The notes beneath the pieces were generated by a model. It saw nothing but the letters and a program-made list of their open reading frames with translations, ran no database searches and was not told the origin of the DNA. 64,000 nt of DNA, from positions 683 to 64,682 of the forward strand of contig JAGLPS010000006.1 of NCBI GenBank assembly GCA_023137185.1, written 5' to 3'. Origin of the DNA: Minisyncoccota bacterium. GTDB taxonomy: Bacteria > Patescibacteriota > Minisyncoccia > Phycocordibacterales > JAGLPS01. A program made the translations under genes and the position numbers. Below are positions 5,505 to 29,238 of this stretch, in pieces. Position 1 is the first letter of the stretch. Every line of letters begins with the position of its first letter.

Positions 5505-5507
5505 TTT

Positions 5508-5637: not shown

Positions 5638-5639
5638 CA

Positions 5640-5960
5640 AGATAATTAAGGAGCTAGCCATCCTATTTTTTTCATAAAAGAGCTGATTTCACAAGACGAC
5701 ATAAAACAGGCCACTCCGTCCATCCCTCGCCCCGTGCCCAAATTATTAAGGGCAAAAGGGCGAGGTATTGGCGGAGCGGCACCATGGCTGTTTTTTTGGA
5801 AGAAGAAGCAGCCTCCGCCGCTCCAAATCCATTTGTCTCTCATCCCGGCAGCAGAGCTGCGGGGATGAGAGACACCCAATAAAAAGAGGTGCCAATCCAC
5901 AGCGCGCGCACAACTCGCGCACATCCTCTTTTTTTCTTTTACCTTCAATGAGCTCAAGGA
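5640..5960. ncRNA. Candidate structured RNA (GC-rich, multi-hairpin) between pyrE stop and the terminator; class not recognisable by eye
   Basis: Locally GC-rich in an AT-rich genome. Nested long stems (tctctcatccc..gggatgagaga, ggagcggc..gccgctcc, cctcgccc..gggcgagg). Only low-complexity Cys-rich ORFs overlap it. Confidence 0.25.
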
Positions 5961-6010
5961 AGTCGCCCGCTTTTACATAACCGAAACATCGGTTTATTTC
6001 TGTACCACAC

Positions 6011-6658
6011 TTATAGCATTTTCTCACTTTTTTCTCCTCTCTGAGCAAGGTACTCGCGGCCATGACCAACTTCCGTGTTTATTGGAATACCTTTTTTGCA
6101 CATCGGGCACTCAAATTCAAGCCATACTTCCAAATTCATATTCACAAGAGAGAAAAGTGTGGGTACGTCAGCTAGCTTTTTCGCGGTAACTCCTCCGCGG
6201 TTGCACAGTGCGCCAACTCCAATAACTTCGCCTCCGGCAAAACGAGTCGCCACGACAACTTTCCGTGCTGATTCTCCCGTGGTTAGCACATCCTCGAGCA
6301 CAAGCACTCTGCTTCCTTCAACAAACCTGTCATAGCCTCTTTTAATGACAAAAAAATTATTTTCTTTTTCTGCATACACCGCAGAAACTTTCTTACCTGT
6401 AAAAGTAGTCAGGTAATATGCAACCCACTGTGAGAGAATTACGCCGCCAATAGCTGGAGCAATAACTGTCTTTACTTTCTCGTCTTGAAATTTTCTTGCA
6501 AGAATTCGGCACAATGTGGATATTCTTATGGTATCCGCATACAACATATCCTTGTTTATATATGAAGCGCTGTGTTTACCTCCTTTGCAAACAATGTGAC
6601 TGTCCGTGATAATTGCTCCAACCTGCCTGAGTATCTCCAGTATCTGATCTGCGTTCAT
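6011..6658 (-). CDS. pyrE: Orotate phosphoribosyltransferase-like type I PRTase with C-terminal CxxC tail
   Basis: 215 aa; PRPP-binding motif VLVLEDVLTTGES; C-terminal ECPMCKKG. Confidence 0.65.
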   Translation of the reverse strand: MNADQILEILRQVGAIITDSHIVCKGGKHSASYINKDMLYADTIRISTLCRILARKFQDEKVKTVIAPAIGGVILSQWVAYYLTTFTGKKVSAVYAEKENNFFVIKRGYDRFVEGSRVLVLEDVLTTGESARKVVVATRFAGGEVIGVGALCNRGGVTAKKLADVPTLFSLVNMNLEVWLEFECPMCKKGIPINTEVGHGREYLAQRGEKSEKML

Positions 6659-6772
6659 TTCAAATCTCCTTTCTGTCTAAAATATGTGTAAGGATTCAAA
6701 TTTTGAAGAACTTATTTGGTGGACAGTTTACCTGAAAGAGTAAATTTTAGCAAGATTTTTTGCAGTAATTAA

Positions 6773-7777
6773 CTAATCAAAAATAGAAACTAGATACTCG
6801 TCTATTTCCCGTTGTTCCAAATCATAAAAATGCTTCCCTGTACTGTGAATGTCTGTCGCTAACTTCACACCGACAAATCTCCAATGCCACGGCTCAAATA
6901 TGTAGTAGCTGTTGTTGTCAGGGTACGAAAGAATAAATCCGTAACGGTGAGCATTTTGAAGAAGCCATTGATAGGCAGACGTCTCATCAAAGCCATCAAG
7001 TGTACCTCCAATACCCGTGGTAATAATATCCACTGCTGTCCCAAGTTGATGTTCCGAATACCCTTGGTCTGCGGAAAACTGGTTCGCAGTCCCCTCCCCA
7101 TAGGTAACGGCATACTGCTCCTTGAGCGCCTCTTGTTCATCAAAAGAGCGGTATGCTGAAAAGATATAAAGCTCAACGCCGCTTTGTTTTGCCTGATTGA
7201 GCATTGTTTGCAAATATGGCCACACTTGAGAATGAATTTTGGAGTGTTTATTTTCGTAGTACTCGTATTCGTCGGGAATCTCTGTAAGGCGCTCTGGCGC
7301 GTAGTGCTCATTGAGAAAAAACACTTTTGAATATTTTTGCAAAAACTCGGGGTCAGTCTTGCTTAATTTTTCCAAAGTCGTTACTGTTCCAGAAATCGCC
7401 CCGACTTCCTGCTCAAAACTTCCGAGCTGTTGCTGTAACGCTCCGACATTCTGTTTCTCTTTATTAAGTTCGCTAGAAAGGGAACTGTGCGTTTCCGCGA
7501 TATTTCCTTTAAGAAGTTCGGTAGTTGACGCAAGTTTTGTCTCAAGAAAAGCAATTTGTCCAGAAAGCGAAGAAATCTGCTCGGAAAAAGCAGTGATATA
7601 TTTATGTCCGTACCAAAAACCAAAACCGACTAGCAAAACAACTAGCGTAAAGGCTCCTGCCACTACCCAATAGTGAGGCGGAACATCTTTTATTGGATGC
7701 CTCTCTGGGGTATGGGTAGACGAAGTGGCCTGTTTTATTGATTTCTCCTCCTTTGTCATCATATGAGTTTTGTTCAC
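6773..7777 (-). CDS. Membrane-anchored D-alanyl-D-alanine carboxypeptidase (peptidase M15B, VanY-like) with coiled-coil region
   Basis: 334 aa; N-terminal TM, SAYRS..Q...SEHQLGTAVDI zinc-peptidase M15 motifs. Confidence 0.75.
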   Translation of the reverse strand: MNKTHMMTKEEKSIKQATSSTHTPERHPIKDVPPHYWVVAGAFTLVVLLVGFGFWYGHKYITAFSEQISSLSGQIAFLETKLASTTELLKGNIAETHSSLSSELNKEKQNVGALQQQLGSFEQEVGAISGTVTTLEKLSKTDPEFLQKYSKVFFLNEHYAPERLTEIPDEYEYYENKHSKIHSQVWPYLQTMLNQAKQSGVELYIFSAYRSFDEQEALKEQYAVTYGEGTANQFSADQGYSEHQLGTAVDIITTGIGGTLDGFDETSAYQWLLQNAHRYGFILSYPDNNSYYIFEPWHWRFVGVKLATDIHSTGKHFYDLEQREIDEYLVSIFD

Positions 7778-14658: not shown

Positions 14659-14844
14659 TTAAGCGGTTTTTGTTTTGGAAGTGTTATCGTAAAATACTTT
14701 TCTTTGGTCTTCGTTTGCGCGCCTTGCCGCCTCTGTAATTATTTTCTTTTTTTCCTTACTTGACGCTTCAAGGAAAAAACGCGAAAACTTGCTTGAGAGT
14801 TTCCCTTTAACTTCTCTCTTGAATATAAAATTAAATAGTTTCAT
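14659..14844 (-). CDS. Small basic hypothetical protein, overlaps the zeta-like gene end by 14 nt
   Basis: 61 aa, lysine-rich; weak. Confidence 0.25.
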   Translation of the reverse strand: MKLFNFIFKREVKGKLSSKFSRFFLEASSKEKKKIITEAARRANEDQRKVFYDNTSKTKTA

Positions 14845-15562
14845 GACTTTTCAGCAACTCTTCTAATTGATTTTTAGTGTATTTGAATTTTATACAGTTG
14901 TCAATTTTATTGATATTTGCCTTAAACTGAATTGTCTGGTGTTTAAAATCTTTTTCCACAAGATAAATTGTAATATTTTTACCAAAATGCTCTTTTAGTT
15001 TGTTTACGACATCCCTTGCTGCGATAAACTGCTCGATGAAAGTCTCTTTTAGTATCCTACGACCATCTTTTTCTTCACGGCGTATGGTAAATTCCCATGC
15101 AATAACCGGATCTTGATAAATATAAAAAATAAAAATAGTTCGGTTTTTATCTAGGGAACGTTGAATATTATCTTTTGCTTTTTCCAAATTTGAAAGAGTA
15201 CCATCAAGAATGAAGTTTTGTTCGTTCGTTAGTACACTATCGTGAATTTTTTCCACAGCAATTGAAACTGCTCCTTGAAATAAATAAGCGTTGCCACCGG
15301 TATAGCCGGGTAATTTGTTTCTAATTTCATCAGCGTCAATACGTGCTACATGACTTTTGTTATCATCCCAGAGATTTTTAAGCAATCCTTTTGAAAATTC
15401 CGTCTTCCCCGCTCCGGGAGAACCCGCCATAAAAACAGATACTGGCGTGGTATCCGGAAATATTTTCTCGGGGTCGGCAAATTCTTGAACGATTTTTTTA
15501 AAGTTTTCCCTCTTTTTTACAAACTTAATTGCTGCTCTTTTAATATCTTCTTCAGATAACAT
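14831..15562 (-). CDS. Zeta-toxin-like P-loop kinase (PF06414-like)
   Basis: 243 aa; Walker A GSPGAGKT, DADEIR, overall zeta/UNAG-kinase-like layout; leaderless start 7 nt after a TAGAAT -10. Confidence 0.55.
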   Translation of the reverse strand: MLSEEDIKRAAIKFVKKRENFKKIVQEFADPEKIFPDTTPVSVFMAGSPGAGKTEFSKGLLKNLWDDNKSHVARIDADEIRNKLPGYTGGNAYLFQGAVSIAVEKIHDSVLTNEQNFILDGTLSNLEKAKDNIQRSLDKNRTIFIFYIYQDPVIAWEFTIRREEKDGRRILKETFIEQFIAARDVVNKLKEHFGKNITIYLVEKDFKHQTIQFKANINKIDNCIKFKYTKNQLEELLKSHETI

Positions 15563-15570
15563 AAACTTAA

Positions 15571-15665
15571 TTCTACACCACTTCCCCGCCTACGCGCACA
15601 CAAGTCTAAATTTTAGGGAATTAAGACAAATTATCGAGAAATTATCGAGGTTCAACCTCGATAAA
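15571..15665 (-). promoter_or_regulatory. Duplicated ~95-nt upstream region (copy 1) with -10-like gtggtgTAGAAT directly before a leaderless ATG, plus palindrome ttatcgag-N4-ttatcgaggttcaacctcgataa
   Basis: Near-identical to 16939-17045, which precedes the NYN gene. Palindromic core atcgaggtt-c-aacctcgat is also present at 47.8 kb and 54.6 kb. Confidence 0.5.
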
Positions 15666-15724
15666 CAGACCGTGAGCTTGTCGAATGTTTCCCTCTAATA
15701 TATATAAAATGATACACTACAATT

Positions 15725-16099
15725 ATGAGTTCAACTGATAAAAAGATTGAAGATTTGGGGTTAAAAATTACTGAATTAACTGAAGCACTCAAAATGATTT
15801 CTGAACGACAAAATTCTCAGTACACTGATATTATGTTAGCTCTTAAAGATATCAAGGACATCCAAAAAGAAATGTCTGAAGAATCCATTCCTCTTTCAGA
15901 TGATAAATTATATGATGAAGCAAAAGAGCTTGTGATTAAATATCAAATAGCTTCAGTTTCATTTCTCCAGCGTATACTACGGATTGGATATTCTCGCGTA
16001 GCTTTTGTTATGGATAAACTAGAAGAGAATGGTGTCATAGGTCATGCAAACGGTTCAGAACCGCACGCGGTTTTGATAAAAAATGAGGACGAAGATTAG
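15725..16099 (+). CDS. Stand-alone FtsK-gamma (winged-helix, KOPS-binding-like) domain protein with coiled-coil N-terminus
   Basis: 124 aa; C-terminal ELVIKYQIASVSFLQRILRIGYSRVAFVMDKLEENGVI matches FtsK gamma domain consensus. Confidence 0.65.
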   Translation: MSSTDKKIEDLGLKITELTEALKMISERQNSQYTDIMLALKDIKDIQKEMSEESIPLSDDKLYDEAKELVIKYQIASVSFLQRILRIGYSRVAFVMDKLEENGVIGHANGSEPHAVLIKNEDED

Positions 16100-16298
16100 T
16101 AAGAATTCTTCAAGGTCGAACCTTGAAATTCTTAACTCCCCCGCTAAACGCTTTGTGGAGGATGGCGGTTCGGAGGGTTTGGAGGTGGGATTTTTAAGTT
16201 ATGCACAAATTTATTGACTTTATTGACTTTTAGTACTCACTCGCTATACTAAGAGCGTCTTTTAGTTTTATCCATAAACTGAAAGGGTTTTACATCCA

Positions 16299-16335
16299 AG
16301 GGCAGCCTTCCTCGCGGAGGGCTGCTTTTTATTTT
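16299..16335. terminator. Hairpin ggcagcc..ggctgc + T-run between the convergent FtsK-gamma and NYN genes
   Basis: stem-loop followed by tttttatttt on the plus strand. Confidence 0.45.
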
Positions 16336-16931
16336 AATTTCTTGCCTTCCGTTTTACTCTTTTCTACTCTGTGCTTCAATTCACGACCCCAAATATCCTC
16401 TGATACTTGTAATATATCAGTATATCCATCCCCTCCCGTTCTTAATTCTTCAGATATATTGTTCTTGGAAGAGTAGATATATACATTTTTTCCGTCTCTC
16501 CTCAAATAAGTTACTAACGCGAGAAAATCTGAATCTCCGGAGAACAAAATAGCTGTTGTGTATTTGTCTTTATGGTGAATAGCATCAATGGTCATTTCCA
16601 CATCCATATTCCCTTTTTCTTCAGTGATGTCTCCGTTATCCGAATGTACAGTGATCCGCTTCAATTCCTTTTTACGAACGTTAATACCAAGACCCTTGCG
16701 AAGATATGTAAAAAACTTGTGTTTCCCGTCCAATAAATAGTCGCGTGTTCCTTCAGCCGGATACGCTGTATAATAAAAAATCTCAATAGCTTGAGCATCA
16801 TTATTCTTTTTGAGAAATTTTTTCAATTTTTCAAAATCAAAAAAATGTCCTCTAACTTTCTGCGCGCTCCAGAGATTTGAAGCGTCAATGAAAACATAAA
16901 CAATCTTTTGTTTTTCTTTATTATTTTTCAT
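16329..16931 (-). CDS. NYN-domain (LabA/PIN-like) putative ribonuclease
   Basis: 200 aa; VYVFIDASNL, DVEMTIDAI, ILFSGDSDF motifs of NYN domain. Confidence 0.7.
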   Translation of the reverse strand: MKNNKEKQKIVYVFIDASNLWSAQKVRGHFFDFEKLKKFLKKNNDAQAIEIFYYTAYPAEGTRDYLLDGKHKFFTYLRKGLGINVRKKELKRITVHSDNGDITEEKGNMDVEMTIDAIHHKDKYTTAILFSGDSDFLALVTYLRRDGKNVYIYSSKNNISEELRTGGDGYTDILQVSEDIWGRELKHRVEKSKTEGKKLK

Positions 16932-16938
16932 AATGCTA

Positions 16939-17045
16939 TTCTACACCACTTCCCCGCCTACGCGCGCACAAGTCTAAATTTTAGGGAATTAAGGCAAATT
17001 ATCGAGAAATTATCGAGGTTCAACCTCGATAATTTCTCGATAAAC
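16939..17045 (-). promoter_or_regulatory. Duplicated upstream region (copy 2) containing a perfect 45-nt palindrome ttatcgagaaattatcgaggtt-c-aacctcgataatttctcgataa (16999-17043) and the leaderless promoter of the NYN gene
   Basis: direct sequence comparison with 15571-15665. Confidence 0.5.
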
Positions 17046-17050
17046 ACAAA

Positions 17051-17089
17051 CACCAAACACCTCAAATACACCATTTGAGGTGTTTGGTG
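17051..17089 (-). terminator. 17-bp perfect hairpin caccaaacacctcaaat-acacc-atttgaggtgtttggtg, terminator of the 17107 gene
   Basis: followed by U-rich tract in minus orientation. Confidence 0.55.
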
Positions 17090-17106
17090 CAAAAGTGGTA
17101 ATTCTG

Positions 17107-17682
17107 CTAGATTTTGGTGTAAAAAACCGATTTCCCGGTGTTCCCGACCTGTTTTATGCGATTTTCTGCTTCAAGAATATCTAAATATCTTACCGCTGTG
17201 GCGCTTGATATTCTAAGTAGTTTTTGAATATCTTTGTTTGTTATTTGAGGCTTTGTCTCAAAAAGAGCTACAACCTTATCTAATTTTTTCCGTCTTCGTT
17301 CTTGAATTTTTGCCCGCGCTTTCACAAGTAATCTTTGAACAATATTCGGATCGGTTTTGTAGATAATTTGTGTTTGAACTTGAGATTGCTGTGGTTGTGG
17401 CTCTGATATTGGCATAGGTTCTTCTGAAACAGAAGAATGTGTGGGAGCAGGTTCTGACACAGTTTGTTCAACCACTTCTTCATCCGCAAGGACTGCTGTT
17501 TCTTGTGGTTGTTCTATTGGTGCTGTGGTTTGAACTTCAGAAATGGTCTCTGGTTGAATTTTCTCAGTTGCTTCTTCAATAGGGTCTGCCGACGGCTCAA
17601 CAATAGGTTCAGTAGCCACAGGTTCTACTGGTACAGTAGTTTCTTCTACTATGTCTTGAGTTTTATTTTCTTCTGGTGGCAT
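17107..17682 (-). CDS. Protein with disordered acidic Pro/Glu-rich N-terminus and C-terminal winged HTH
   Basis: 191 aa; C-terminal KDIQKLLRISSATAVRYLDILEAENRIKQVG is HTH-like; 11 nt after the hsdS stop. Confidence 0.45.
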   Translation of the reverse strand: MPPEENKTQDIVEETTVPVEPVATEPIVEPSADPIEEATEKIQPETISEVQTTAPIEQPQETAVLADEEVVEQTVSEPAPTHSSVSEEPMPISEPQPQQSQVQTQIIYKTDPNIVQRLLVKARAKIQERRRKKLDKVVALFETKPQITNKDIQKLLRISSATAVRYLDILEAENRIKQVGNTGKSVFYTKI

Positions 17683-17693: not shown

Positions 17694-19136
17694 CTACAAT
17701 TTTAATTGATTATTTGATGAATTACGATTGTTTTTTTCAATCTCCTCCTCAACTCTCCTTTTCGCTTCTTCTAAAAGCTCTTTGCTTTCTTTTCTCAATT
17801 TATGGCTTTCCTGTATTTTTTCTGCAATCTGTTTTTGAATTTTTGGGTTGATAAGAGGAATTTTAAATTTTTCAAAATCTGATGGTTTTAGATGGGCGAT
17901 TATTGCTCCGCCTGATAATTTTTCAACTTGCGTTTTAGAAATAATGGAATTGAAAATCAGAGACAGGCATTCTTTTTCAAAAGTTTGATATTTGTCTTTT
18001 AGGCTCAATCTTAAAAACGCTCCGCTCAAAATTAGATCAAATTCTTCTTTGACGACATAACTTAAACCGATTGTTCCATCTTTGGTAAATAAAATATCGT
18101 CCCGTTTAGGCTGATAATCATTTTTTAATTCCTGATAAAGCCCTTTTGAAATTTTCTTGCCTGTGTCTTTAACTCCGTTTATTGAAAAATCCGAAACTCT
18201 CCCAAATGACATTCCGTCCTGCTGATATGTTTCGCTCCCAACCTCAACGCCTTTTTTCCAATTCACTATATTTTTAACAAAATTCCAGCCGTTTTTATAA
18301 TTTTCAATCTTTTTAATTATCTCATCATATTTCGGCTGAAAATATTCCGCGTCAAATCTCCCCGCCTCGTCTGTTTCTTTTTTTGTAGTTTGAAATGATA
18401 AAATATGCTCTAGCTTGTAATCCCCTCCTTTGCCAAGGCTTCGGCGGGCAGGCAACAAATCAACCTCTTTCAAAAGCGTTTCTTCGGCTTGTTTGTAAAG
18501 TTGTTTTGATTGGGTTTGTTTTTCGTAAGCGAACTTTACGATTTTTTCTATTTGGAGTTGGAAAGATTGAGGAAGGATTGGGATTTTTAAATCAGTAAAA
18601 TTAAAAACGTTTAATTTGGGTTGTGCGTTACCGCTTATTCTTCTTAATATTTGATTTTGACCATACTTTGAATTTAAAAAAGTTAAAATAAAATATTTTA
18701 TTTCTTCATTGTAATTCTCTAGTTTTATACCGATATTATTTTCAGAGACATTTGCTCTTTTCATTTCATTATCTATTCTTGCAATCAAGCCAATTGTATT
18801 TCCAACTTTTGAGACAACTAAATCGCCTTGTTTTAATTCAGAATTTTTAATCTTATTATTACTATCCTCAGAAATACAAACCATATTTTCTTTTTCTAAA
18901 AAAAATCTTTGTCTTATGTCTTGAACTCTTACAAAATAAACACCTTCATTAAGATATTCTTCACTTTTTAAAGTTGACCCAAAGGGACCTGATACAACCT
19001 CATTTTTTGATAAATAAAAATGTTTTAAATTGTCCAATTTCTCTTCAATCTCCAAATATTCCAGTTTAAAAAACTCCGCGTCAAACCTGCGCGCTTCTTG
19101 AACATCTGATTTTTTGATAATTGAGATTTGTGGCAT
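17694..19136 (-). CDS. hsdS: Type I restriction-modification specificity subunit
   Basis: 480 aa; two target-recognition domains separated by conserved coiled-coil repeats; N-terminus MPQISIIKKSDVQEARRFDAEFF. Confidence 0.85.
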   Translation of the reverse strand: MPQISIIKKSDVQEARRFDAEFFKLEYLEIEEKLDNLKHFYLSKNEVVSGPFGSTLKSEEYLNEGVYFVRVQDIRQRFFLEKENMVCISEDSNNKIKNSELKQGDLVVSKVGNTIGLIARIDNEMKRANVSENNIGIKLENYNEEIKYFILTFLNSKYGQNQILRRISGNAQPKLNVFNFTDLKIPILPQSFQLQIEKIVKFAYEKQTQSKQLYKQAEETLLKEVDLLPARRSLGKGGDYKLEHILSFQTTKKETDEAGRFDAEYFQPKYDEIIKKIENYKNGWNFVKNIVNWKKGVEVGSETYQQDGMSFGRVSDFSINGVKDTGKKISKGLYQELKNDYQPKRDDILFTKDGTIGLSYVVKEEFDLILSGAFLRLSLKDKYQTFEKECLSLIFNSIISKTQVEKLSGGAIIAHLKPSDFEKFKIPLINPKIQKQIAEKIQESHKLRKESKELLEEAKRRVEEEIEKNNRNSSNNQLKL

Positions 19137-19142
19137 ATTATT

Positions 19143-20948
19143 TTAACTTTCCAATTTATCTTTTATGAAATTAAAAATTTCCTTAAAATTTTTCTTTGTT
19201 GTGTTTAACAAATTAAAACTTTCGCCCTTAATGAAAAGTTCTTGAATGGCTGTATTAAATTTACTTTTTTCATATTCCACGCTATCAGGAAAAGATAATT
19301 TTTGAATCCTCAATCTCTCCGCAGAAGTATGAAATAGTTTTTCAGTTTGAAAATTGCTAAAATTTTCTTTTATTTCTTTCAGGGTAAATATGTGCTTTTT
19401 TAATTCTTCACTTACATTATTTAAATAATTTTTTTTCGCTCTTTTTCCCGGAATGTCATCATCAAAAATTGCAATAAATTTTTTGTTATTTGCTAAATAT
19501 TCGCGAAAAATATTCTCGTGCTTATCAACTCCTGCCCCAGGATAAAAGTTAAAATCATAATCATCATTAAAAAATTGCTCTTTTACCCATTTAAACGTGT
19601 AGTAATCAAATTTACCTTCAGTGAAAACAATGTTTTTAGTCTGCTCAAAAGGATTTTTAATATATTCTAAACAATCTAAAATTGGCTGAAAGTGTGTTTC
19701 CTCGTTTTCATTGTTTGCAACAAAATTCCTATATAGTTCTGCGTCAATATTCTGGCTGTAGTTTTCCATATCAATCACTCCGCTACTGTCTTCTTTTCTG
19801 CCTTTGTCTTTCACAACAAATGAAGTAAGTAAAAATTTTGGATTTAATAAATAGTGGCTATGTGTTGAATAAATTATTTTTGATCTGTCAATTAACTTTT
19901 CAAAAAGTTTTAGCAATTTTTGCTGGGATCCTTGATGTAAATTACTTGCTGGTTCATCAAATAAAAATAAATATTCTCCTTTTTCAGTTTGTCTTGCCTT
20001 TCTAAATTCAGTAAAAAGCAAAAAGCCAAAATACCATCTAAAACCCAAACTCATTTCATTGATGTAAAAACTGCTTGCCCCCTCTTTAATTTTAAATTGC
20101 AAAAAATAACCATTGGTATCTTTATTATGTTCAATTTCAATATTCTTTCTTGTTGAATTAGAAAAAATTTGTTGCCAAGACTGCACTATGACAGAATTTA
20201 ATTTTTGACTCATTTCATTTAATATTTGTTTTGCGGATTCTTCATCATCCTCGCTTGTACTTTTTAATCTATCTAGAATATGTTTATTTAAATTATAAGA
20301 CTCATCAATGCTACTTAAAATGTCTTGTAAAATTTTTCTATATTCTTTTTGAGTGTCCGTTTTTGTTAATTCCGAATTTTCAATATTTTCAAGATAAATT
20401 TTGTCAGGAAAATCAAATAGAAAATTTTCAAAATACAAAATTTTTGGAATTAACTTTTCTTTAATTTCTGTTGTTAACGCATCCCAATGTTCGTTGTATC
20501 TATCGTACATATCAACAAAATTTTTTGCTTGTTTTGTCTTTACTTTTAAATCAATGTTCCACAAAACACTAAAACCTCTATCAATAAATTTAGAATCTTT
20601 GAATTTATATTTTTTAGTAATTGATATTTCATCTATTTCTTTTTCTAATTCTAATTTTTTCTTTAGTAAAAAAGATTCAATAAATTTTTTGTCATCATTA
20701 CCCAATTTTAAAGTTGCTTTAATTGTTACTACATCGTTAAAATTTGCTTTTTTATTCTTATGTATCATCTCGTGCTCGCTGCCCTCAATTTTATTTTGAA
20801 ATAAATCTATTGCTTCTAAAATTGTAGTTTTTCCGCTCTCGTTTAACCCAACTAATGGAAAAATTTCTCCATTCGGTTGTTTTGTTAAATCTAAAACAAG
20901 ACTATTTATCCCTTTAAAATTTTTTATTTTGAATTTAATGTATTTCAT
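19143..20948 (-). CDS. OLD-family nuclease: N-terminal ABC ATPase fused to C-terminal Toprim domain (Gabija GajA / class-1 OLD-like)
   Basis: 601 aa; Walker A GLNESGKTT, Walker B LFLFDEPASNLH, H-loop YSTHSH; Toprim glutamate (VFTEGKFD) and DxD (IFDDD); stop is 6 nt before the hsdS ATG. Confidence 0.75.
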   Translation of the reverse strand: MKYIKFKIKNFKGINSLVLDLTKQPNGEIFPLVGLNESGKTTILEAIDLFQNKIEGSEHEMIHKNKKANFNDVVTIKATLKLGNDDKKFIESFLLKKKLELEKEIDEISITKKYKFKDSKFIDRGFSVLWNIDLKVKTKQAKNFVDMYDRYNEHWDALTTEIKEKLIPKILYFENFLFDFPDKIYLENIENSELTKTDTQKEYRKILQDILSSIDESYNLNKHILDRLKSTSEDDEESAKQILNEMSQKLNSVIVQSWQQIFSNSTRKNIEIEHNKDTNGYFLQFKIKEGASSFYINEMSLGFRWYFGFLLFTEFRKARQTEKGEYLFLFDEPASNLHQGSQQKLLKLFEKLIDRSKIIYSTHSHYLLNPKFLLTSFVVKDKGRKEDSSGVIDMENYSQNIDAELYRNFVANNENEETHFQPILDCLEYIKNPFEQTKNIVFTEGKFDYYTFKWVKEQFFNDDYDFNFYPGAGVDKHENIFREYLANNKKFIAIFDDDIPGKRAKKNYLNNVSEELKKHIFTLKEIKENFSNFQTEKLFHTSAERLRIQKLSFPDSVEYEKSKFNTAIQELFIKGESFNLLNTTKKNFKEIFNFIKDKLES

Positions 20949-20970: not shown

Positions 20971-21096
20971 TTATCTCCAAAACCCCAACCCATTCTCCCT
21001 CCCCCACTTCTCAAAAGCAAAAGCGATCTCGTCTAAGTCGTCAAACTTGCGCGCTTCTTGAACATCTGATTTTTTTATAATTGAAATTTGAGGCAT
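20971..21096 (-). other. Junction repeat 2 with chimeric 41-aa mini-ORF MPQISIIKKSDVQEARKFDDLDEIAFAFEKWGRENGLGFWR (hsdS N-terminus fused to hsdM C-terminus)
   Basis: Start 2 nt after the stop of the upstream cassette gene. Its stop lies 22 nt before the OLD ATG, reproducing the native hsdM-stop/hsdS-start spacing. Confidence 0.6.
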
Positions 21097-21098
21097 AG

Positions 21099-22025
21099 TT
21101 AATTTTTAATTTTAGAAACCTCTGATGGCTCAATTTCTTTCCCTTCTGGTTTAGGGTTAAATTCTATACTTTTATAATTTTTACATTGAAATAATTGATA
21201 TTTAATAAGTTCATCAAACTTCAAATTTCCTTTTTTTAGATCTGATGGATGAATTACAATAATTAATTTTTCGCAAATCGCTTTATATTTAGATGTATCT
21301 ATAAAAGTATCTATAATTTGCTTAATAATAATTTCTCTGGTTAGCTCAGGATTTCTTCCATGTTGTGCATTTATTAGAGGAATCACAATAGATTCATCTT
21401 TACTTGAATCAGAGGAAAGAAATTCCCATAATCCATTTAAGCTAAGCATAAAATCATCTATAGAGGATTTGACTCTATCATTTTTTTGTTTCTTTGAATT
21501 TACAAGTAAATAAAACCTTTTTATTTTATTTTTAAACAATTTCTTTTTTTGCTTTTCTATTTCAATAACCTTTCCTATCTCAAAAGGAGTATCCCTAATA
21601 TTTATTTTTTCCTTTATTTTATCGTCTAGTTGTTTTGAATCATTATTAAAATAATCTTTAATTAATTTATTCTGAATACTTTTTGCTTCTTTAACATTTC
21701 CATTCAGGGATGTATCAAAATAATTATTAAACGGAACTATTTGTGAACCTTTAACATTAAAAGCATCTCCAATTTTCAACTCAATGCAAGAGTCTCTATC
21801 TCTAATTTTTATAGAATGAGATGATTTCGGATAATTTTTAAAAATTGCATATAAAAAACTTGAACCTAAAATGCACCAAAATATTAAAGGAAGATTTAAT
21901 CTTTCACTTACAGAAGAGAAAAAATATGAAATAATTTCTGTGATTAGCCACAAAAAACCAAGACAAGAAAGAAAGTCTTTAATAGCAAAACGCCAATTTT
22001 GTATCCATCTTTTTATTAAGATCAT
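21099..22025 (-). CDS. Two-TM membrane protein with ~230-aa cytoplasmic C-terminal domain of unknown family (candidate effector/sensor of the TIR cassette)
   Basis: 308 aa; two N-terminal hydrophobic helices; start overlaps the TIR gene stop (ATGA). Confidence 0.45.
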   Translation of the reverse strand: MILIKRWIQNWRFAIKDFLSCLGFLWLITEIISYFFSSVSERLNLPLIFWCILGSSFLYAIFKNYPKSSHSIKIRDRDSCIELKIGDAFNVKGSQIVPFNNYFDTSLNGNVKEAKSIQNKLIKDYFNNDSKQLDDKIKEKINIRDTPFEIGKVIEIEKQKKKLFKNKIKRFYLLVNSKKQKNDRVKSSIDDFMLSLNGLWEFLSSDSSKDESIVIPLINAQHGRNPELTREIIIKQIIDTFIDTSKYKAICEKLIIVIHPSDLKKGNLKFDELIKYQLFQCKNYKSIEFNPKPEGKEIEPSEVSKIKN

Positions 22026-22528
22026 AATCCTAGTTGCTGGTAAACTGTATCTTTGTAATGATAAGCTCCTGTTTTATCATTATTTCTAAAAGAAGAATCT
22101 GAATCAAACCAATCATCAATAGCATGTTCAATTATCTTTTGTTTAAAATTCACATGAACAGCTAATTCGTCTTTTAGTATTGTTGGACATAAATCAGAAT
22201 CCATACTTGTTTTCCCATTTAAATTTACTACAATAATCGGAATATTTCTTTTTATTGCCTGCTCAATTTCCCAACGAACAAATTTATAAAGATGTTTCGT
22301 ATTATCTCCCACAAGAAGAATAAAAACTTTCGTGTTTCTTAATCGTTCAGCAAGTTTTGCCTTAATAGTTTCTTCTGTAGAATCTGACATAAGATTATTT
22401 AAATCATGAGCATCATAAAAATTAAATGAAGTATTATCACTTTTTTTCCAAGCTTGCATTAAACGATAATAATGAATGTCATTATCTGCATCAAAAGCAA
22501 CATATGTTTTGTTTGTATAAATTGTCAT
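22022..22528 (-). CDS. TIR-like domain protein (DUF1863/ThsB-like)
   Basis: 168 aa; YVAFDADNDIHYY N-terminal strand and KVFILLVGDNTKH..WEIEQAIKRNIPIIVV pattern of bacterial TIR-like (ThsB) domains. Confidence 0.6.
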   Translation of the reverse strand: MTIYTNKTYVAFDADNDIHYYRLMQAWKKSDNTSFNFYDAHDLNNLMSDSTEETIKAKLAERLRNTKVFILLVGDNTKHLYKFVRWEIEQAIKRNIPIIVVNLNGKTSMDSDLCPTILKDELAVHVNFKQKIIEHAIDDWFDSDSSFRNNDKTGAYHYKDTVYQQLGL

Positions 22529-22567
22529 AAAAATATTTTAGATTAATAAATTAATTTTTCCAAAAAT

Positions 22568-22879
22568 TCAACTCTTCCTTTTCACAAGAGTTTTTCCTGT
22601 TTTACCTCTTCGTAATTGGACTTTCGGCATATTCTTTTTTGCGTGATCCAAAGCCTCATCATTAAAACCTTTTGTTGAAACAATTACATCTGCATGGTTT
22701 TGTTGATACGCTTTTTGTAATTGAAATTTCGTAAGAGGCTTTTTGTAATCTTTCACTTCAACTTTATCTCCTCCCTTTTTAATATCTGGATTATTTGGTC
22801 CAGCTTTTCTTGTGCCATCAATTCCTTTGGCGACTTTTTTCTCTGCTCGTTTTCCTTTTTTTGCATTGTTATCTGTCAT
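22568..22879 (-). CDS. Small basic protein with possible minimal PD-(D/E)xK motif
   Basis: 103 aa; NNPDIKKGGDKVEVKDYKKP could be PD...ExK; weak. Confidence 0.3.
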   Translation of the reverse strand: MTDNNAKKGKRAEKKVAKGIDGTRKAGPNNPDIKKGGDKVEVKDYKKPLTKFQLQKAYQQNHADVIVSTKGFNDEALDHAKKNMPKVQLRRGKTGKTLVKRKS

Positions 22880-22907: not shown

Positions 22908-23039
22908 TTATTTCCAAAAACTCAACCCATTCTCCTTCCCCCACTTCTCAAAAGCAAAAGCGATCTCGTCTAAGTCGTCAAACTTGCGTGCTTCATTGAA
23001 TATCTGTTTTTTTATAATTGAAATTTGCGGCATAGCCAT
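22908..23039 (-). other. Junction repeat 1 with chimeric 43-aa mini-ORF MAMPQISIIKKQIFNEARKFDDLDEIAFAFEKWGKENGLSFWK
   Basis: Nucleotide-level copy of the hsdM 3' end joined to the hsdS 5' start; start 1 nt after the stop of the 379-aa gene. Confidence 0.6.
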
Positions 23040-23040: not shown

Positions 23041-24180
23041 TTAATTTATATGATAATGCTTAATTGCATTATTTCGAATAACTAAAAGATAACTTTCTGT
23101 TTTCCAGCATTGTTGATTATCACATATCTCACTAACATATTCTTTTTCATTAAAAATAACGAAGTTTATCTCTTTTAAAAATGTATTTCCACAAACAAAA
23201 TTCTTAATAAAATCTTTATTTTTTATATTTCCAATTAAATATAAAGTTTCCAAATTTGATTTTGTAAATTCCTCTATATATCTTTTGTAAGGAGCACTAC
23301 CTTGCTCATAAATTTTGTCTGTTTTCCCGATTATAATCATTCCAAATTTACAATAATTACCTAAAAATCTATTATCGGTTTCTTCATTGATTTTTCGCCT
23401 TGAATAATTATTTAAAAATTTTATTAAATTTGTAACCTCTGTAATAATTAAATCGTCTTTTCTATTATTAAAAACTTTTTCTCCTAAAAAAATCATCTCT
23501 TGAATAAAGACAGGAAAAAATAATCCTTTTTTATCAATACTTTGATATTTAACAAATAAATCATCAACTATTTTTTCTTCTATTTTTGGATGTAAAAAAT
23601 CTTCAATAAATTCTTTTACGACATCTTCTTTCTCCTCTTCAAATATTTTCTTGCCAACAAATAAATCTATAGATTCTTTTTGTTTTTCACTTATATATCT
23701 TTTTGCTTTAATTAATAAATTTTCTGCTATAAAAATCATAGTTGCATTAACAAAGTTTTTATTTTCATTATCATTTTTCCTTATTCTAACAATCATTTTT
23801 CCATTCTCTAAAAAAGATTTTGGTATTTCACTATCACTTACCCATTCCACTTTTAGTTTTATTGGCATAAAACCTTTAATTTCTCTTTTTAAAAAACCGT
23901 TAACAAAAGAATTAGTTCTACTTTGAAAATCATGCTGGATATATTTTTTCCTGATTACGGGAACTGTTTTAAAAATTTTTGATAATGCTTTATAAAATAA
24001 TGCAATAAATTTTTCAAATCTATCGGGATAAAATACAGCACAAACAAAAACTATGAAAAATAAAAACCAACCGCCGTATGCGAACATACAGTCAAAAAAA
24101 ACTTTCGCGCTTTCCCCGTCATTAAAATTTATATTAATTGGCATATTTATTTTAAATATACTAATAGTTTTTTTATACAC
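23041..24180 (-). CDS. Hypothetical protein with one N-terminal TM helix (cassette 1)
   Basis: 379 aa, Lys/Glu/Phe-rich, no recognisable motif. Confidence 0.4.
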   Translation of the reverse strand: MYKKTISIFKINMPININFNDGESAKVFFDCMFAYGGWFLFFIVFVCAVFYPDRFEKFIALFYKALSKIFKTVPVIRKKYIQHDFQSRTNSFVNGFLKREIKGFMPIKLKVEWVSDSEIPKSFLENGKMIVRIRKNDNENKNFVNATMIFIAENLLIKAKRYISEKQKESIDLFVGKKIFEEEKEDVVKEFIEDFLHPKIEEKIVDDLFVKYQSIDKKGLFFPVFIQEMIFLGEKVFNNRKDDLIITEVTNLIKFLNNYSRRKINEETDNRFLGNYCKFGMIIIGKTDKIYEQGSAPYKRYIEEFTKSNLETLYLIGNIKNKDFIKNFVCGNTFLKEINFVIFNEKEYVSEICDNQQCWKTESYLLVIRNNAIKHYHIN

Positions 24181-24380
24181 TCAGGCGAATCGCACACAAA
24201 TTTTATATCTTCTGATTTTTTAAATAAAGAATGCAAGTTTTCAACATTAATTATATTTTTGCAAAATTCACATTTTTTTCTTCCTTGTACAAAATCATCT
24301 AAAATGCCAAGCCTTTTCAGCATTCCTTTTAAATCATCATCGTATACTAGATTGATTTTCTTTTTTTCTTTTTTGAACAT
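24147..24380 (-). CDS. Small protein with C-terminal CxxC...C..C zinc-ribbon-like motif
   Basis: 77 aa; CEFCKN...CDSPEC. Confidence 0.3.
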   Translation of the reverse strand: MFKKEKKKINLVYDDDLKGMLKRLGILDDFVQGRKKCEFCKNIINVENLHSLFKKSEDIKFVCDSPECIKKLLVYLK

Positions 24381-24404
24381 ATTAATTTATTTATTTTCAA
24401 AAAA

Positions 24405-25070
24405 TTATTTTTCATCTCTCTTTTCAATAGCTTCTTTGGAATTTTCTGGTAAATCGTTATAAAAACTGTCAATTTCTTTTTGTTCTGTAATCATTTTTTC
24501 TGCTATAAAATTTAGCAATTCAAAAAGTTTCAAGACTTTTTCTGTCTCTTCTTCAAGATTTATTTCTCCTGGGTGAACCGCACCATTTCCTGTTATTCTA
24601 AGTATATCCAAAGATTTTTGAATTTGAGGATTCAACCCTTTTTTAACTAACTCCTTTATGTCATCATTTATATTTTTTCCTTTTTCACCAAGCTGTTTGC
24701 AAAGTTTTTGTAACGCTAATCTTAAAAGTGCAGCAGATGCTCGCGGAGAATCACTAAAAATATTTGCCGCTTCTAAATAATCCTTTTTAATGTCACCAGA
24801 CAAATCATCGTTAGGCAGATCAACAATCATTTTTTTAGGATATATAATTTCATTTTCAAGCCAAATTATTTTTTCGCTACAATGTTTGCATCGTGACATT
24901 TTCCATTCACTTGATAAATTCTCGTTAAACTTGCTAACACCGTAAAAATCATCTCCATAAACATGATGACCTGTAATATGTCCCCATTGTTGCTCTGCAA
25001 ATACTCCACAGTGCGGACAATGGAATTCGCCGTAATTCAATATTGGTGGATAATGTTTTTCTTTTGTCAT
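24405..25070 (-). CDS. Zinc-finger + DUF4145 domain protein
   Basis: 221 aa; CPHCG...CKHCSEK N-terminal Zn finger; C-terminal LRLALQKL...ILRITGNGAVH pattern of DUF4145; starts 21 nt after the hsdM stop. Confidence 0.55.
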   Translation of the reverse strand: MTKEKHYPPILNYGEFHCPHCGVFAEQQWGHITGHHVYGDDFYGVSKFNENLSSEWKMSRCKHCSEKIIWLENEIIYPKKMIVDLPNDDLSGDIKKDYLEAANIFSDSPRASAALLRLALQKLCKQLGEKGKNINDDIKELVKKGLNPQIQKSLDILRITGNGAVHPGEINLEEETEKVLKLFELLNFIAEKMITEQKEIDSFYNDLPENSKEAIEKRDEK

Positions 25071-25091: not shown

Positions 25092-27119
25092 TTATCTCCA
25101 AAAATTCAACCCATTCTCCTTCCCCCATTTCTCAAAAGCAAAAGCAATATCGTCTAAATCGTGTTTTTGTTTTAGGTGGTTATGCTCATCAAGTTTTCTT
25201 TCTCCATTTTTATCAACTTCGTAAATCTCATCCCCCGAATTATCTTTGCCTGAATTTTCACTCACCGCCATAAATATTTTATAATCATCAACCTTTGGAT
25301 TGATTTTTTCATCCCATTTCTGCACAAACAAGACAGAAGTTTTTGTTCCCGTATGCGGTTTGAAAGTATTGCCGTCAAGCCCGACCACCGCTAAAAGGCG
25401 CGCCCGCTCCATTATAAAATCCCTGATCCTTTCATCGCTCGTATTATTAAACCTTCCCTGCGGCAAGACAATCGCCATTCTTCCGCCCGGTTTTAGAAAA
25501 TCCAGATTCCTTTCAATAAACAAAATGTCTCTTGAAATATTATCAATCTGCTTGTCTTTTTTATAAGCCACTTCATAGCAAGCCGTCATCCTTTTATCTT
25601 TAATATCTCCGGCAAAAGGCGGATTCGCCATTACCAAATCAAAATTAAATTCTTTTGGATTTTTTCTGTCTTTCGCCAAATCCAGCAATCTGTAAAAACC
25701 CTCTAAATAAGTTCTGCTCCATTCCCGGTCTTTCAGTTTTTCTTCCCACCTTGTGTAATCAAGCGAATTCAAATGCAAGACATTTGTCCTGCCGTCGCCC
25801 GCAATCATATTTAAAGTCCGCGCGACACGAACCGATTTTTCGTCAAAATCAATCCCGAAAACTTTTAAGACATATTCCTTTTGCTCTTTGGTCGGTTTCT
25901 GATTTGAAAAATTGCTGAATTGCGCCTTGCCGTTGCCTTTTAATTTTTCCCAAACATTAAAAAGCGTATGTACTGTAAATCCGCAAGACCCGCAAGCCGT
26001 ATCTATCATATACTCGCTTGGCTTTGGATTAAGCATATAAACGCACATATCAATTACATTTCTTGGCGTAAAATACTGTCCTTTTTCTCCTTTGGCGGAT
26101 TTGTTGACCAGATATTCAAACGCTTCGTCAATCACCTGCAGATTGGAATTGAAGAGTTTTACATTCTGCAAAAATCCGACGCAGATTTGCAGATGGTTTT
26201 CATCCGTAATGCGAAGCGGTTCGCCTTTTTCAAAAATTCCCGGCCATTTTTCTTTGGCTTTCTGAAAAAGATTATTGATGACTTCTTTCGTATGATGCGC
26301 ATCGCCGCGACTTCTGAATTCCAGTTGCGTTAATCCTTTTATTTTAACTTTAGCCAAAATTTCTTTATCAGATAAATCAGGATTTTCTTCTCTTAGTTCT
26401 TTAAATTTCCACTCTATTTTTTGCCTATCTTCCGAGCTTTCCATTTCATCATAAAGCTTGATAAAAATCAGTTTAAAAACTTCTTCAAAAACATCCACGC
26501 CGGCATTTGCCAGAACTTCGTCCTCCATTTCCTGAATTAAAGTTTTCAAAGATTTTCTTTCTTCCTGAAGCTTGTCTTTTTGCATCAGTTCCAAATAAGT
26601 AAAAATTTCGTTTTTTACATCGTCTATTGTTTCATTCGCTTTTGGAATATCAGAAAGCGGTTCAAAATAATTAGGATCCAATCGCTCGTAATAATTTATT
26701 TCTGTTCCGTTCGTCCAAACCGCCAAAGGTGCGCCTGTCGCGTTTGTGTAGCTTTTCAACTGGTCTTTCCCATCTTTCGCTTTGTGCTTTTTAATTTCCA
26801 AAACACAATAAACGCTCGTTTTATCTTTTTTATTTAAAATAATAATATCCGCTAGCTTCTTTTCCCTGCCAAAAGAAATAGAAAATTCAACCCTTATCAA
26901 ATCAACGGGATAATTATATTCATTAAGAAGTTTATCAAGCGTTAATTGCCTCACAATCTCCTCCGGCTTTGCTTGAATGTCTTTTTCTCTTTTCAAACAT
27001 TTAATAAAATGCTTTCCTTTTTTCTCAAAAATGCTTTTCTCAACTCTGTCTATGCTTTCCGCGGAAAAAGTCGTCAAATCATATTTCCCGCCTGATTTTA
27101 TAAGTTGCGATAGATTCAT
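25092..27119 (-). CDS. hsdM: Type I restriction-modification DNA methyltransferase subunit
   Basis: 675 aa; N6-adenine MTase motifs DTACGSCGF (motif I) and NPPF (motif IV); HsdM N-terminal domain. Confidence 0.9.
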   Translation of the reverse strand: MNLSQLIKSGGKYDLTTFSAESIDRVEKSIFEKKGKHFIKCLKREKDIQAKPEEIVRQLTLDKLLNEYNYPVDLIRVEFSISFGREKKLADIIILNKKDKTSVYCVLEIKKHKAKDGKDQLKSYTNATGAPLAVWTNGTEINYYERLDPNYFEPLSDIPKANETIDDVKNEIFTYLELMQKDKLQEERKSLKTLIQEMEDEVLANAGVDVFEEVFKLIFIKLYDEMESSEDRQKIEWKFKELREENPDLSDKEILAKVKIKGLTQLEFRSRGDAHHTKEVINNLFQKAKEKWPGIFEKGEPLRITDENHLQICVGFLQNVKLFNSNLQVIDEAFEYLVNKSAKGEKGQYFTPRNVIDMCVYMLNPKPSEYMIDTACGSCGFTVHTLFNVWEKLKGNGKAQFSNFSNQKPTKEQKEYVLKVFGIDFDEKSVRVARTLNMIAGDGRTNVLHLNSLDYTRWEEKLKDREWSRTYLEGFYRLLDLAKDRKNPKEFNFDLVMANPPFAGDIKDKRMTACYEVAYKKDKQIDNISRDILFIERNLDFLKPGGRMAIVLPQGRFNNTSDERIRDFIMERARLLAVVGLDGNTFKPHTGTKTSVLFVQKWDEKINPKVDDYKIFMAVSENSGKDNSGDEIYEVDKNGERKLDEHNHLKQKHDLDDIAFAFEKWGKENGLNFWR

Positions 27120-27200
27120 AATTTTTTGTTAAAAGTTTCGTAATAAATTTATTTTGATTGATACTTTTGTTTCTTTGAAATTTGCTATATTTTTATTTAA

Positions 27201-27710
27201 TTAAATCATCCCTCCAGAGGCGGGCAGGCAGGCGAAATACCGAGAGCGTCCGCGATTTTTTAACTGTGTCAATGGTGGGGTTTGGCGTTGCGCGTCGCCG
27301 ACCGCTTTCATAAACTCATCGTAGTTTTTGGCAATGCGTTTGCGATTTATTGTATACCCTTGAACAAGATATTCTTTTAATATCTTGTTCGCCCACTTCC
27401 TAAATTCAACAGCTTGAGCGGAATTTGTTCTATATCCTACGGATAAAATAACATCAAGAGAATAAAAAGAAACCGGCTTATCTGAATTTGCAATGTGCAT
27501 TTTTTGCACATTGCTTTTTTCACTTATTTCTCCAGATTTAATGATCGTTCTAATATGCTTTGTGATCACAGATCGTTCTACACTAAAAACTTCAGCAATC
27601 TGTGCCTGTGTCGCCCATATATTTTCATGCTCAAAATCGCCTCGAAGTTCAATCGCTCCGTTTTTTGCTTGATAAATAATTATATTGTTTGCTGTTTTTT
27701 TCTTTTTCAT
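27201..27710 (-). CDS. RhuM-family (virulence protein RhuM / DNA-binding) protein
   Basis: 169 aa; IYQAKNGAIELRGDFEHENIWATQAQIAEVFSVERSVITKHIR matches the RhuM family commonly found beside hsdM. Confidence 0.7.
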   Translation of the reverse strand: MKKKKTANNIIIYQAKNGAIELRGDFEHENIWATQAQIAEVFSVERSVITKHIRTIIKSGEISEKSNVQKMHIANSDKPVSFYSLDVILSVGYRTNSAQAVEFRKWANKILKEYLVQGYTINRKRIAKNYDEFMKAVGDAQRQTPPLTQLKNRGRSRYFACLPASGGMI

Positions 27711-27889
27711 AATTTATATTTCGCTTTAAACATCCCTCCAAAGGCGGGCAGGCAGGCGAAACGCCGAGCGCGTCCGCAATTTTTTAACTGTGTCAATAGT
27801 GGGGTTTGGCGTTGCGCGTCGCCGACTACTTCGGCGTCTTTGCGCATAATGTTTTGGATATTTTTGATGATGTTTTGTATTTCGGACAT
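27707..27889 (-). pseudogene. Duplicated 3' fragment of the RhuM gene (~100 nt) fused to unrelated N-terminal sequence
   Basis: 27722-27820 is ~90% identical to 27208-27305; encodes ...VGDAQRQTPLLTQLKNCGRARRFACLPAFGGM. Confidence 0.5.
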
Positions 27890-29005: not shown

Positions 29006-29194
29006 CTATGCAGTATACAACTGCCTCTCAATCTCCTCCGGCTTCGCCTGAATATCGCTCTTTCTTTTCAGGCATTTAACAAAAAACTTTTTGTTTTTCT
29101 CAAAAATCTTTTTTTCAACCCTGTCTATACTTTCCTCGGAAAAAGTCGTCAAATCATATTTCCCGCCTGATTTTATAAGTTGTGATAAATTCAT
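29006..29194 (-). pseudogene. Duplicated 5' fragment of hsdM (first 57 codons, ~235-nt repeat including the upstream region)
   Basis: MNLSQLIKSGGKYDLTTFSEESIDRVEKKIFEKNKKFFVKCLKRKSDIQAKPEEIERQL vs the hsdM N-terminus; 29000-29233 approx equals 26925-27158. Confidence 0.7.
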
Positions 29195-29238
29195 AATTTT
29201 TTGTTAAAAGTTTCGTAATAAATTTATATTGCCTATAA

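Follow-up and report, generated by a model that had tools for sequence, protein, structure and literature searches.

The 64,000-nucleotide stretch of DNA analysed here (hereafter the window; positions 683 to 64,682 of contig JAGLPS010000006.1, assembly GCA_023137185.1, of a Minisyncoccota bacterium) carries a gene of the OLD family, referred to below as OLD. This gene is the S-proximal of three cargo cassettes located between the restriction–methylase fusion gene (M; hsdM) and the specificity gene (S; hsdS) of a BsaXI/BcgI-like restriction-modification (R-M) operon. It is a divergent but intact member of its family. As judged from its sequence and from structural models, its product combines an ABC-type ATPase with a Toprim domain and a helical C-terminal extension, and it is predicted to have nuclease activity. 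We consider it moderately probable that this protein is an autonomous cargo nuclease, co-transcribed with the R-M enzyme and serving as a second line of defence, and that it is not a subunit of the R-M enzyme. The coordinates of the features discussed are collected in Table 1.

The OLD open reading frame (ORF) is 1.8 kb long, and at the G+C content of this DNA, 25–28%, such a frame would be extremely unlikely to stay open by chance. At E<=1e-5 its product is matched by more than 3,000 database proteins, most of them over the full length of about 600 amino acids (aa); the best 120 matches, nearly all of which are full-length proteins of this size, originate from Patescibacteria, Bacteroidota and other phyla. 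A gene with 100% identity is present on a public 2.5-kb contig of "Candidatus Parcubacteria bacterium RS_9_75" (L001), which places the source among the Parcubacteria (Patescibacteria). The original prediction, which was made from the nucleotide sequence alone, described a single polypeptide with the Walker A, Walker B and H-loop motifs of an ABC ATPase and the glutamate and DxD motifs of a Toprim domain. All of these motifs are present and are invariant in an alignment of 32 relatives (44–75% identity to OLD), as are the ABC signature and residues E536, K561 and N565 of the C-terminal part.

The ATPase part of the protein was recognized by the Pfam models AAA_15 (PF13175; 9e-23, aa 1–367) and AAA_21 (4.8e-11). 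Its top match among the PADLOC models was AriA of the PARIS system (1.3e-23); HEC-01A models also matched this part, and the 'Old' model (2.6e-16) spanned aa 5–537. The best sequence match in the PDB was the OLD protein of Thermus scotoductus (TsOLD; 6p74), with only the ATPase aligned. When the C-terminal 233 aa of OLD were analysed alone with Pfam, the sole Toprim match was Toprim_2, at a sub-threshold E=0.02. Of the two Pfam families named in the original prediction, PF13175 was thus found in OLD itself, whereas OLD-like_TOPRIM (PF20469) was reached only by its relatives: among 24 C-terminal domains of the family, Toprim_2 was matched by 15 (best 1.9e-5) and PF20469 by 13 (best 1.3e-4). None of the 24 domains matched a PADLOC defence model, AriB included. 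PDB sequence searches left the Toprim region unmatched, whether the query was the protein or an alignment (full or C-terminal); for the C-terminus they gave only non-significant matches to the Toprim domain of T7 primase (E≈0.6).

The fold of the protein was compared with known structures by means of AlphaFold2 models. The full-length model (predicted local distance difference test score, pLDDT, 86.7; predicted template modelling score, pTM, 0.83) had as its best PDB matches GajA (3.8e-16; 8u7i, 8x5i and 8sm3) and TsOLD (2e-14), with alignments spanning the whole chain. For the model of aa 392–601, the five best PDB matches were all C-terminal regions of OLD proteins, from Xanthomonas and Burkholderia (6njx, 6njv, 6njw and 6nk8; E 2e-4 to 3e-3), followed by the Toprim domains of TsOLD, GajA, RNase M5 and T7 primase.

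It is extremely unlikely that the gene encodes a RecF/SMC/ABC-type ATPase with an unrelated C-terminus, or that it is a decaying pseudogene. The sub-threshold Toprim_2 match of OLD alone, the missing PADLOC match of its C-terminus and the restriction of the PDB sequence alignments to the ATPase would agree with such an identity, but E444, D448, D496, D498 and G501 are invariant across the 32 homologues, both Toprim_2 and PF20469 are matched at the level of the family, the closest folds of the C-terminal model are those of OLD proteins, and the ORF is unbroken and retains all residues that are invariant in the family. An ATPase of the RecF/SMC type devoid of a Toprim domain, the identity that the original prediction had set against its own, is therefore excluded by the family profiles and the fold searches, because the matches of both the full-length and the C-terminal models are OLD proteins. 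The combination of ABC ATPase and Toprim domain in one polypeptide was borne out by AAA_15, the PADLOC 'Old' model, the family-level Toprim matches and the folds.

A viral structure library yielded only generic giant-virus "ATP-dependent endonuclease" and SMC-like matches. Searches with tblastn found nothing in phage records and only distant ATPase similarity (<=30% identity) in plasmids, so the OLD clade is not evidently phage- or plasmid-borne.

The partner genes were characterized in the same way. The product of hsdM matches HSDR_N_2 (4.4e-25) and N6_Mtase (1e-32) in Pfam, and its best PDB match is the type IIB enzyme RM.BsaXI (5e-23). The D…E-I-K residues of its PD-(D/E)xK signature are invariant in 25 relatives. 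The product of hsdS contains two Methylase_S stretches according to Pfam. Neither HsdR nor ResIII was found among the scanned large ORFs of the window or beside the related M–cargo–S loci. Since M has a PD-(D/E)xK motif of its own and HsdR is missing, the R-M system has its own predicted nuclease. M and S look like a self-contained BcgI/BsaXI-like enzyme, with the nuclease and a gamma-type N6-adenine methylase on one polypeptide and a separate S protein with two target-recognition domains, as in type IIB-like systems. The R-M partner that the original prediction gave to OLD is thus present, but it is not of the classical type I, which was rejected because there is no separate HsdR motor–nuclease subunit.

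The M and S proteins also matched NCBIfam models of the MADS system (MADS2, 7.7e-92, and MADS5, 1.3e-44, respectively), and the OLD ATPase weakly matched MAD3 (PADLOC 1.1e-8; NCBIfam 0.005). The mad3 gene of MADS has the methylase gene on one side and the S gene on the other, and it shows a genetic interaction with mad5 (10.1101/2023.03.30.534895). By this comparison, OLD would be an integral motor/nuclease subunit of a MADS-like system (MAD3 or a surrogate HsdR) that is needed for restriction, which the missing HsdR would suit. We regard this as very improbable. The NCBIfam scores are far under the curated cut-offs (MADS2 309 vs 720, MADS5 153 vs 400, MAD3 16 vs 420), and MAD6–8, which are required by the authors of the system, are absent, the genes downstream encoding a 191-aa helix-turn-helix (HTH) protein and a NYN protein. 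M, moreover, has its own conserved nuclease motif, and half of the related M…S loci are without OLD. Membership of MADS was rejected on account of the absent MAD6–8 and of MAD2, MAD3 and MAD5 scores below the cut-offs.

Read along the minus strand, the locus is composed of (i) M, (ii) a PD-T7-4-like gene and a gene for a 379-aa protein, (iii) a junction, (iv) a 103-aa ORF, thsB and thsA, (v) a second junction, (vi) OLD and (vii) S. OLD is therefore the last cassette before hsdS, with its stop codon 6 nt ahead of the ATG, and no GajB-like helicase adjoins it, since it is flanked by hsdS and, at the other end, by a scar mini-ORF and ThsA; on both points the original prediction was correct. The DUF4145 protein of the first cassette matches PD-T7-4 in PADLOC (1.8e-87) and DUF4145 in Pfam (1.1e-17). 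The 379-aa protein has no family match in Pfam, NCBIfam or PADLOC and may be an uncharacterised partner of the PD-T7-4-like protein or a separate defence gene. The middle cassette encodes a Thoeris system (ThsB_TIR 7e-22 and ThsA_Macro 3.8e-29 in Pfam; ThsB 7.7e-75 and ThsA 2.1e-40 in PADLOC). It is compact, the ThsB TIR gene (168 aa) overlapping that of ThsA (308 aa; N-terminal transmembrane region and Macro domain). The 103-aa ORF ahead of ThsB encodes a basic protein with a weak Mrr_cat-like match (E=0.004). The G+C content of the region containing the cargo cassettes (19–25 kb) is 22–30%, as against 35–46% for hsdM, hsdS and the surrounding genome, which is consistent with a foreign origin of the three cassettes.

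The two junctions are direct repeats in which the 5′ end of hsdS is joined to the 3′ end of hsdM (repeat families D2 and D3), each forming an in-frame S'–M' fusion mini-ORF. The scar upstream of OLD begins 2 nt past the ThsA stop codon and ends 22 nt ahead of the OLD ATG. The other scar holds compensating -1/+1 indels and its frame stays open. The fusion point is identical in both, and they have in common five substitutions relative to the 3′ end of the resident hsdM; both scars would therefore derive from one joining event in another allele and not from two independent events at this locus. We found no description of cassette stacking through such mini-ORFs in the literature searched, and this arrangement is more unusual than the OLD gene itself, which is an ordinary protein type at a known type of place.

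Table 1. Features of the R-M operon and its cargo cassettes (coordinates are those of the window).
Feature	Position	Strand	Description
OLD-family gene	19143..20948	minus	ATG start; 601 aa; ORF including stop codon
ABC ATPase domain of OLD, aa 1–~385	19794..20948	minus	AAA_15, invariant columns, TsOLD 6p74 match
Walker A, G34-LNES-G39-K40-T41	20826–20849	minus	G34 and G39-K40-T41 invariant in the 32-sequence alignment
ABC signature, S300-L-G-F	20043–20051 (S300-G302)	minus	Invariant in the 32-sequence alignment
Walker B, D331-E332	19953–19958	minus	Invariant in the 32-sequence alignment
H-loop, H363	19860–19862	minus	Invariant in the 32-sequence alignment
C-terminal Toprim and helical region of OLD, aa 392–601	19146..19775	minus	Predicted; model pLDDT 82.7, fold and family-level Pfam matches
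Toprim motif, E444-G-K-x-D448	19617–19619 (E444)	minus	E444, G and D448 invariant in the 32-sequence alignment
Toprim motif, D496-x-D498-xx-G501	19455–19463 (D496-D-D498)	minus	Invariant in the 32-sequence alignment
Spacer AATAAT between OLD stop TAA and hsdS ATG (at 19136)	19137..19142	minus	6 nt
Specificity gene (hsdS)	17694..19136	minus	HsdS-like, two target-recognition domains; 480 aa; Methylase_S 1.6e-15, PADLOC Specificity_I 1.2e-40
Junction scar upstream of OLD	20971..21096	minus	41-codon in-frame mini-ORF; hsdS codons 1–19 and last 22 hsdM codons
Middle cassette (Thoeris)	21099..22879	minus	103-aa ORF 22568–22879; ThsB TIR 22022–22528; ThsA Macro/transmembrane 21099–22025
Second junction scar	22908..23033	minus	41-codon in-frame mini-ORF; fusion point identical to that of the other scar
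First cassette	23041..25070	minus	PD-T7-4-like DUF4145 protein 24405–25070; 379-aa protein 23041–24180
Restriction–methylase fusion gene (hsdM)	25092..27119	minus	675 aa; N-terminal HSDR_N_2 PD-(D/E)xK and N6_Mtase
Two strong terminator-like hairpins after the gene for the 191-aa HTH protein	16999..17090	minus	Stems of 19–20 bp, perfect or near-perfect

We also inspected 71 metagenomic loci with close relatives of hsdM (72–91% identity), in which genes were called by a simple longest-ORF routine and some loci that were fragmentary or used alternative genetic codes were skipped. Both M and S were visible in 33 of them. The cargo between the two genes was OLD alone in 17 and other genes in 15, and one contained nothing between M and S. 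The other cargo comprised (i) SLFN/AlbA_2 with HATPase_c_4, (ii) DUF4145, (iii) an unknown gene with a D12 methylase, (iv) AAA_13, (v) AIPR, (vi) a different OLD type, (vii) PIN, (viii) Fic, (ix) DUF4357, (x) RhuM and (xi) several proteins belonging to no family. The N-terminus of S (~25 residues) and the C-terminus of M (~28 residues) show conservation in every related locus, regardless of the cargo. The M–S gap thus serves this BsaXI-like R-M family as a slot for variable cargo. In nearly all related loci, and with any cargo, 1–9 nt separate the cargo stop codon from the start of S, so it is the slot, and not OLD, that accounts for the close abutment on hsdS.

Several individual loci deserve a description of their own. 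The different OLD type, which matches PF20469, occupies the slot of L094 (4545-6362), and an AAA_13 (RloC/PrrC-like) protein that of L086 (8403-10592). In another locus, L126, M and S are fused in one 967-aa ORF (194-3097) with no cargo. In L116 and L117, in which S was not identified, Bro-N and DUF1016/YhcG genes lie downstream of M. Outside the window, S'–M' fusion scars were found in only one of 151 loci, L116 (metagenome contig JAAGOD010007572.1), and the junction differs from that of the window: in an independent in-frame scar at 5265 (MAQISII|QKHDL…), codons 1–7 of S are joined to the last 25 of M. The stacked cassettes of this locus follow M–OLD (4100-7266), with cargo that includes Bro-N and two unknown proteins, and a degraded second S'–M' scar is located at 7083.

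The stretch from M to S probably constitutes a single transcript, because the cargo–S gaps are 1–9 nt long and the only strong minus-strand terminators downstream of hsdM are the hairpins at 17090–16999, which likely mark the end of the operon. OLD would then be produced together with the R-M enzyme, and the spacing suggests translational coupling, with ribosomes possibly re-initiating across the 6-nt gap into hsdS. The protein itself may act alone as a second line of anti-phage defence. Its ATPase, probably a dimer as in the Thermus OLD, would gate or sense, and the Toprim site would cut nucleic acid by two-metal catalysis, either nicking DNA or degrading it in the 5'→3' direction, by analogy with the characterised class 1 OLD proteins (PMC7049728, PMC12392090, PMC10568477). 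Recombination in the conserved 3′ flank of M and 5′ flank of S may bring cassettes in and remove them, and a single illegitimate S5'–M3' join, propagated afterwards, may have given rise to the chained array.

The independence of OLD from the R-M enzyme is favoured because M has a nuclease motif of its own, half of the M…S loci are without OLD, and most members of the OLD family have no R-M gene beside them. The last point comes from 80 species-level genome loci of the family, in which neighbours were counted as aggregated Pfam hits (E<=1e-3). The upstream neighbour was N6_Mtase in 9 of 70 cases, Methylase_S in 7/70 and ResIII in 3/70, and the downstream neighbour was Methylase_S in 13 of 71 and HsdR in 3/71; the majority of the family is not adjacent to any R-M gene. 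That the slot also accepts complete autonomous systems such as Thoeris weighs against a tie between OLD and the R-M enzyme. Between the two options left by the original prediction, i.e. a stand-alone nuclease or one functionally linked to the R-M complex, we lean toward stand-alone cargo.

Several observations weigh against this view. The Toprim region is unmatched by the PADLOC models, and it may therefore act on another substrate than the characterised OLD proteins do. About a quarter of the wider OLD family adjoins type I genes in other phyla, and apparent hsdM–hsdS–OLD–hsdR operons occur in Bacteroidota. In a neighbour-joining tree, the OLD of the window belongs to a clade of 31 members, all of which occupy the M–OLD–S position; the tree was built from p-distances without bootstrap, and its sample came from two biased searches, one OLD-based and one M-based, so the clade is indicative only. 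A pure clade of 31 and the occurrence of OLD in about half of the slots exceed the expectation for a random hotspot and could reflect a functional partnership. On the other side, against a tie, the distances of M and OLD are only weakly correlated (Mantel test, Spearman 0.27; 89 of 2000 permutations were as high), with a median identity of 83% for M vs 52% for OLD; this neither proves nor excludes co-evolution.

A functional partnership might consist in OLD guarding the R-M enzyme, as do PrrC-, PARIS- or Ronin-like systems, being either silenced by the M2S complex or watching it. If a phage anti-restriction protein (e.g. a DNA mimic) blocked M2S, the ATPase would free the Toprim nuclease, which would cut DNA or tRNA, and the infection would be aborted. 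Precedents have been published: PrrC, encoded within EcoprrI, is set free by T4 Stp, PARIS is a split OLD triggered by Ocr, and in Ronin HsdMS restrains RonA (10.1101/2023.04.06.535777; PMC12707154); fused forms of PARIS have also been reported (PMC12392090). The purity of the M–S-embedded clade, the position of OLD as the commonest cargo (17/33), its place always directly abutting S (1–5-nt gaps), the embedding of the family in canonical type I operons of Bacteroidota, and the top PADLOC match of the ATPase, AriA, argue for a guarding role. We nevertheless find it rather doubtful. The C-terminal domain has no AriB-type match, an R-M gene is missing from the immediate surroundings of most members of the family, the divergence of M and that of OLD are only weakly correlated, and the slot equally takes self-contained systems such as Thoeris. 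A more elaborate combination of these ideas is distinctly unlikely. According to it, the OLD clade would guard a type IIB-like enzyme as a fused counterpart of PARIS docked on the M2S core and would fire when a phage blocks the enzyme; the M–S gap would be an integron-like array stacked by recombination in the flanks, and the S'–M' mini-ORFs would relay ribosomes, keeping the stack coupled to hsdS.

The surroundings of the operon were examined as well. Downstream of hsdS (14831-17682) are genes for the 191-aa protein, which is acidic and proline-rich with a C-terminal HTH, a NYN protein (200 aa) and a Zeta-toxin kinase (243 aa); the terminator-like hairpins are located between the HTH and NYN genes. 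A promoter scan of this AT-rich DNA was uninformative (66 sites vs 54 expected). Rfam and tRNA scans of the window identified only a tRNA-Asn (36096–36168); at the locus itself they detected no RNA element. On the other side of the operon, the 5′ end of hsdM with its upstream region (26944-27156) is duplicated at 29019-29231 (88% identity), upstream of a 364-aa HATPase_c and DUF4325 gene, and the 107-nt 3′ end of a truncated 169-aa RhuM-like gene is present twice (27201-27307 and 27725-27831; 91%). In two related loci (L101 and L102) an intact RhuM gene lies directly upstream of M, and the duplications therefore suggest a second insertion event on that side of hsdM.

These results give a defined genetic setting to a large, as yet uncharacterised clade of OLD proteins that occurs in hundreds of species, most of them Patescibacteria or Bacteroidota. 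M–OLD–S offers a simple three-gene construct with which to ask whether a single-gene OLD is autonomous or guards a restriction enzyme, a question listed as open in reviews of the family. They also point to a BsaXI-like R-M family in the tiny genomes of candidate phyla radiation (CPR) bacteria, whose cargo slot with conserved flanks shuffles and stacks "R-M-embedded" defence genes. This slot may be useful for mining new defence genes, since the 379-aa and 103-aa proteins and several cargo proteins of related loci belong to no family.

When compared with the known classes of the family, OLD resembles the class 1 proteins (P2 Old, TsOLD 6P74 and Vc OLD of Vibrio cholerae) in having the ATPase and the Toprim domain in one chain, with no helicase, retron or separate AriB; the adjacent genes include no UvrD/PcrA-like helicase, retron or split Toprim gene. 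Identity to class 1 is nevertheless only ~14%, TsOLD is shorter (528 aa vs 601 aa), and the C-terminal region of OLD superposes better on class 2 C-terminal regions (E 2e-4) than on that of TsOLD (7e-2). Class 1 OLD proteins have been described as single genes that are not near other defence genes (PMC10568477), which is not true of OLD, placed as it is inside an R-M operon beside the Thoeris and PD-T7-4-like cassettes. The 'GajA/class-1' label of the original prediction accordingly holds for the OLD architecture but not as a class assignment, GajA belonging to class 2 and the stand-alone form to class 1.

GajA of Gabija (class 2) is the best full-length fold match of OLD and is similar in length, and the C-terminal fold is closest to this class. 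PADLOC GajA models, however, cover only parts of the OLD ATPase, and GajB is expected directly downstream of GajA, where OLD has hsdS; the Pfam families listed for the genes directly flanking OLD in about 70 loci of relatives include no UvrD family, and these relatives have no GajB/UvrD neighbours. A GajB homologue was also sought elsewhere. The only UvrD-type gene of the window encodes a 1141-aa UvrD helicase with a C-terminal PDDEXK_1 domain (49555–52980), which is AddA/RecB-like, lies 30 kb from OLD and most likely represents housekeeping repair rather than GajB. Gabija was rejected, there being no GajB and the downstream gene being hsdS. A retron-associated OLD (class 3) was likewise rejected, as the neighbours contain no reverse transcriptase domain and the window no retron RNA family. 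PARIS (class 4) has the AriA-type ATPase match in common with OLD, but OLD is fused and not split, and its family shows no AriB match among 24 C-termini. By its context, OLD is thus neither class 2 nor class 3, and it is not clearly class 4.

The position of the gene has parallels as well. Like prrC, OLD lies inside an R-M operon, and the slot of a related locus (L086) holds an AAA_13 (RloC/PrrC-like) gene. The rlo genes of Campylobacter type I loci are accessory genes embedded in R-M systems, and in R-M-embedded loci rloA/rloB and AbiL form pairs in which the ATPase is split from a Toprim-like partner. Defence genes embedded in hsd operons are indeed well known; prrC, TgvAB (PMC11411939) and candidates of this type in PADLOC are examples. 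In R-M or Hma clusters with accessory genes, such as the type I R-M locus of V. cholerae with TgvAB (PMC11411939) and the 'HEC' candidates of PADLOC, the defence genes also lie between hsd genes and share their transcript, and strains differ in the insert but not in the conserved flanks. The HEC-01A models also match the OLD ATPase. In the window, by contrast, the host system is a BsaXI/BcgI-like R-M fusion with S in Patescibacteria, and three cassettes are chained within it.

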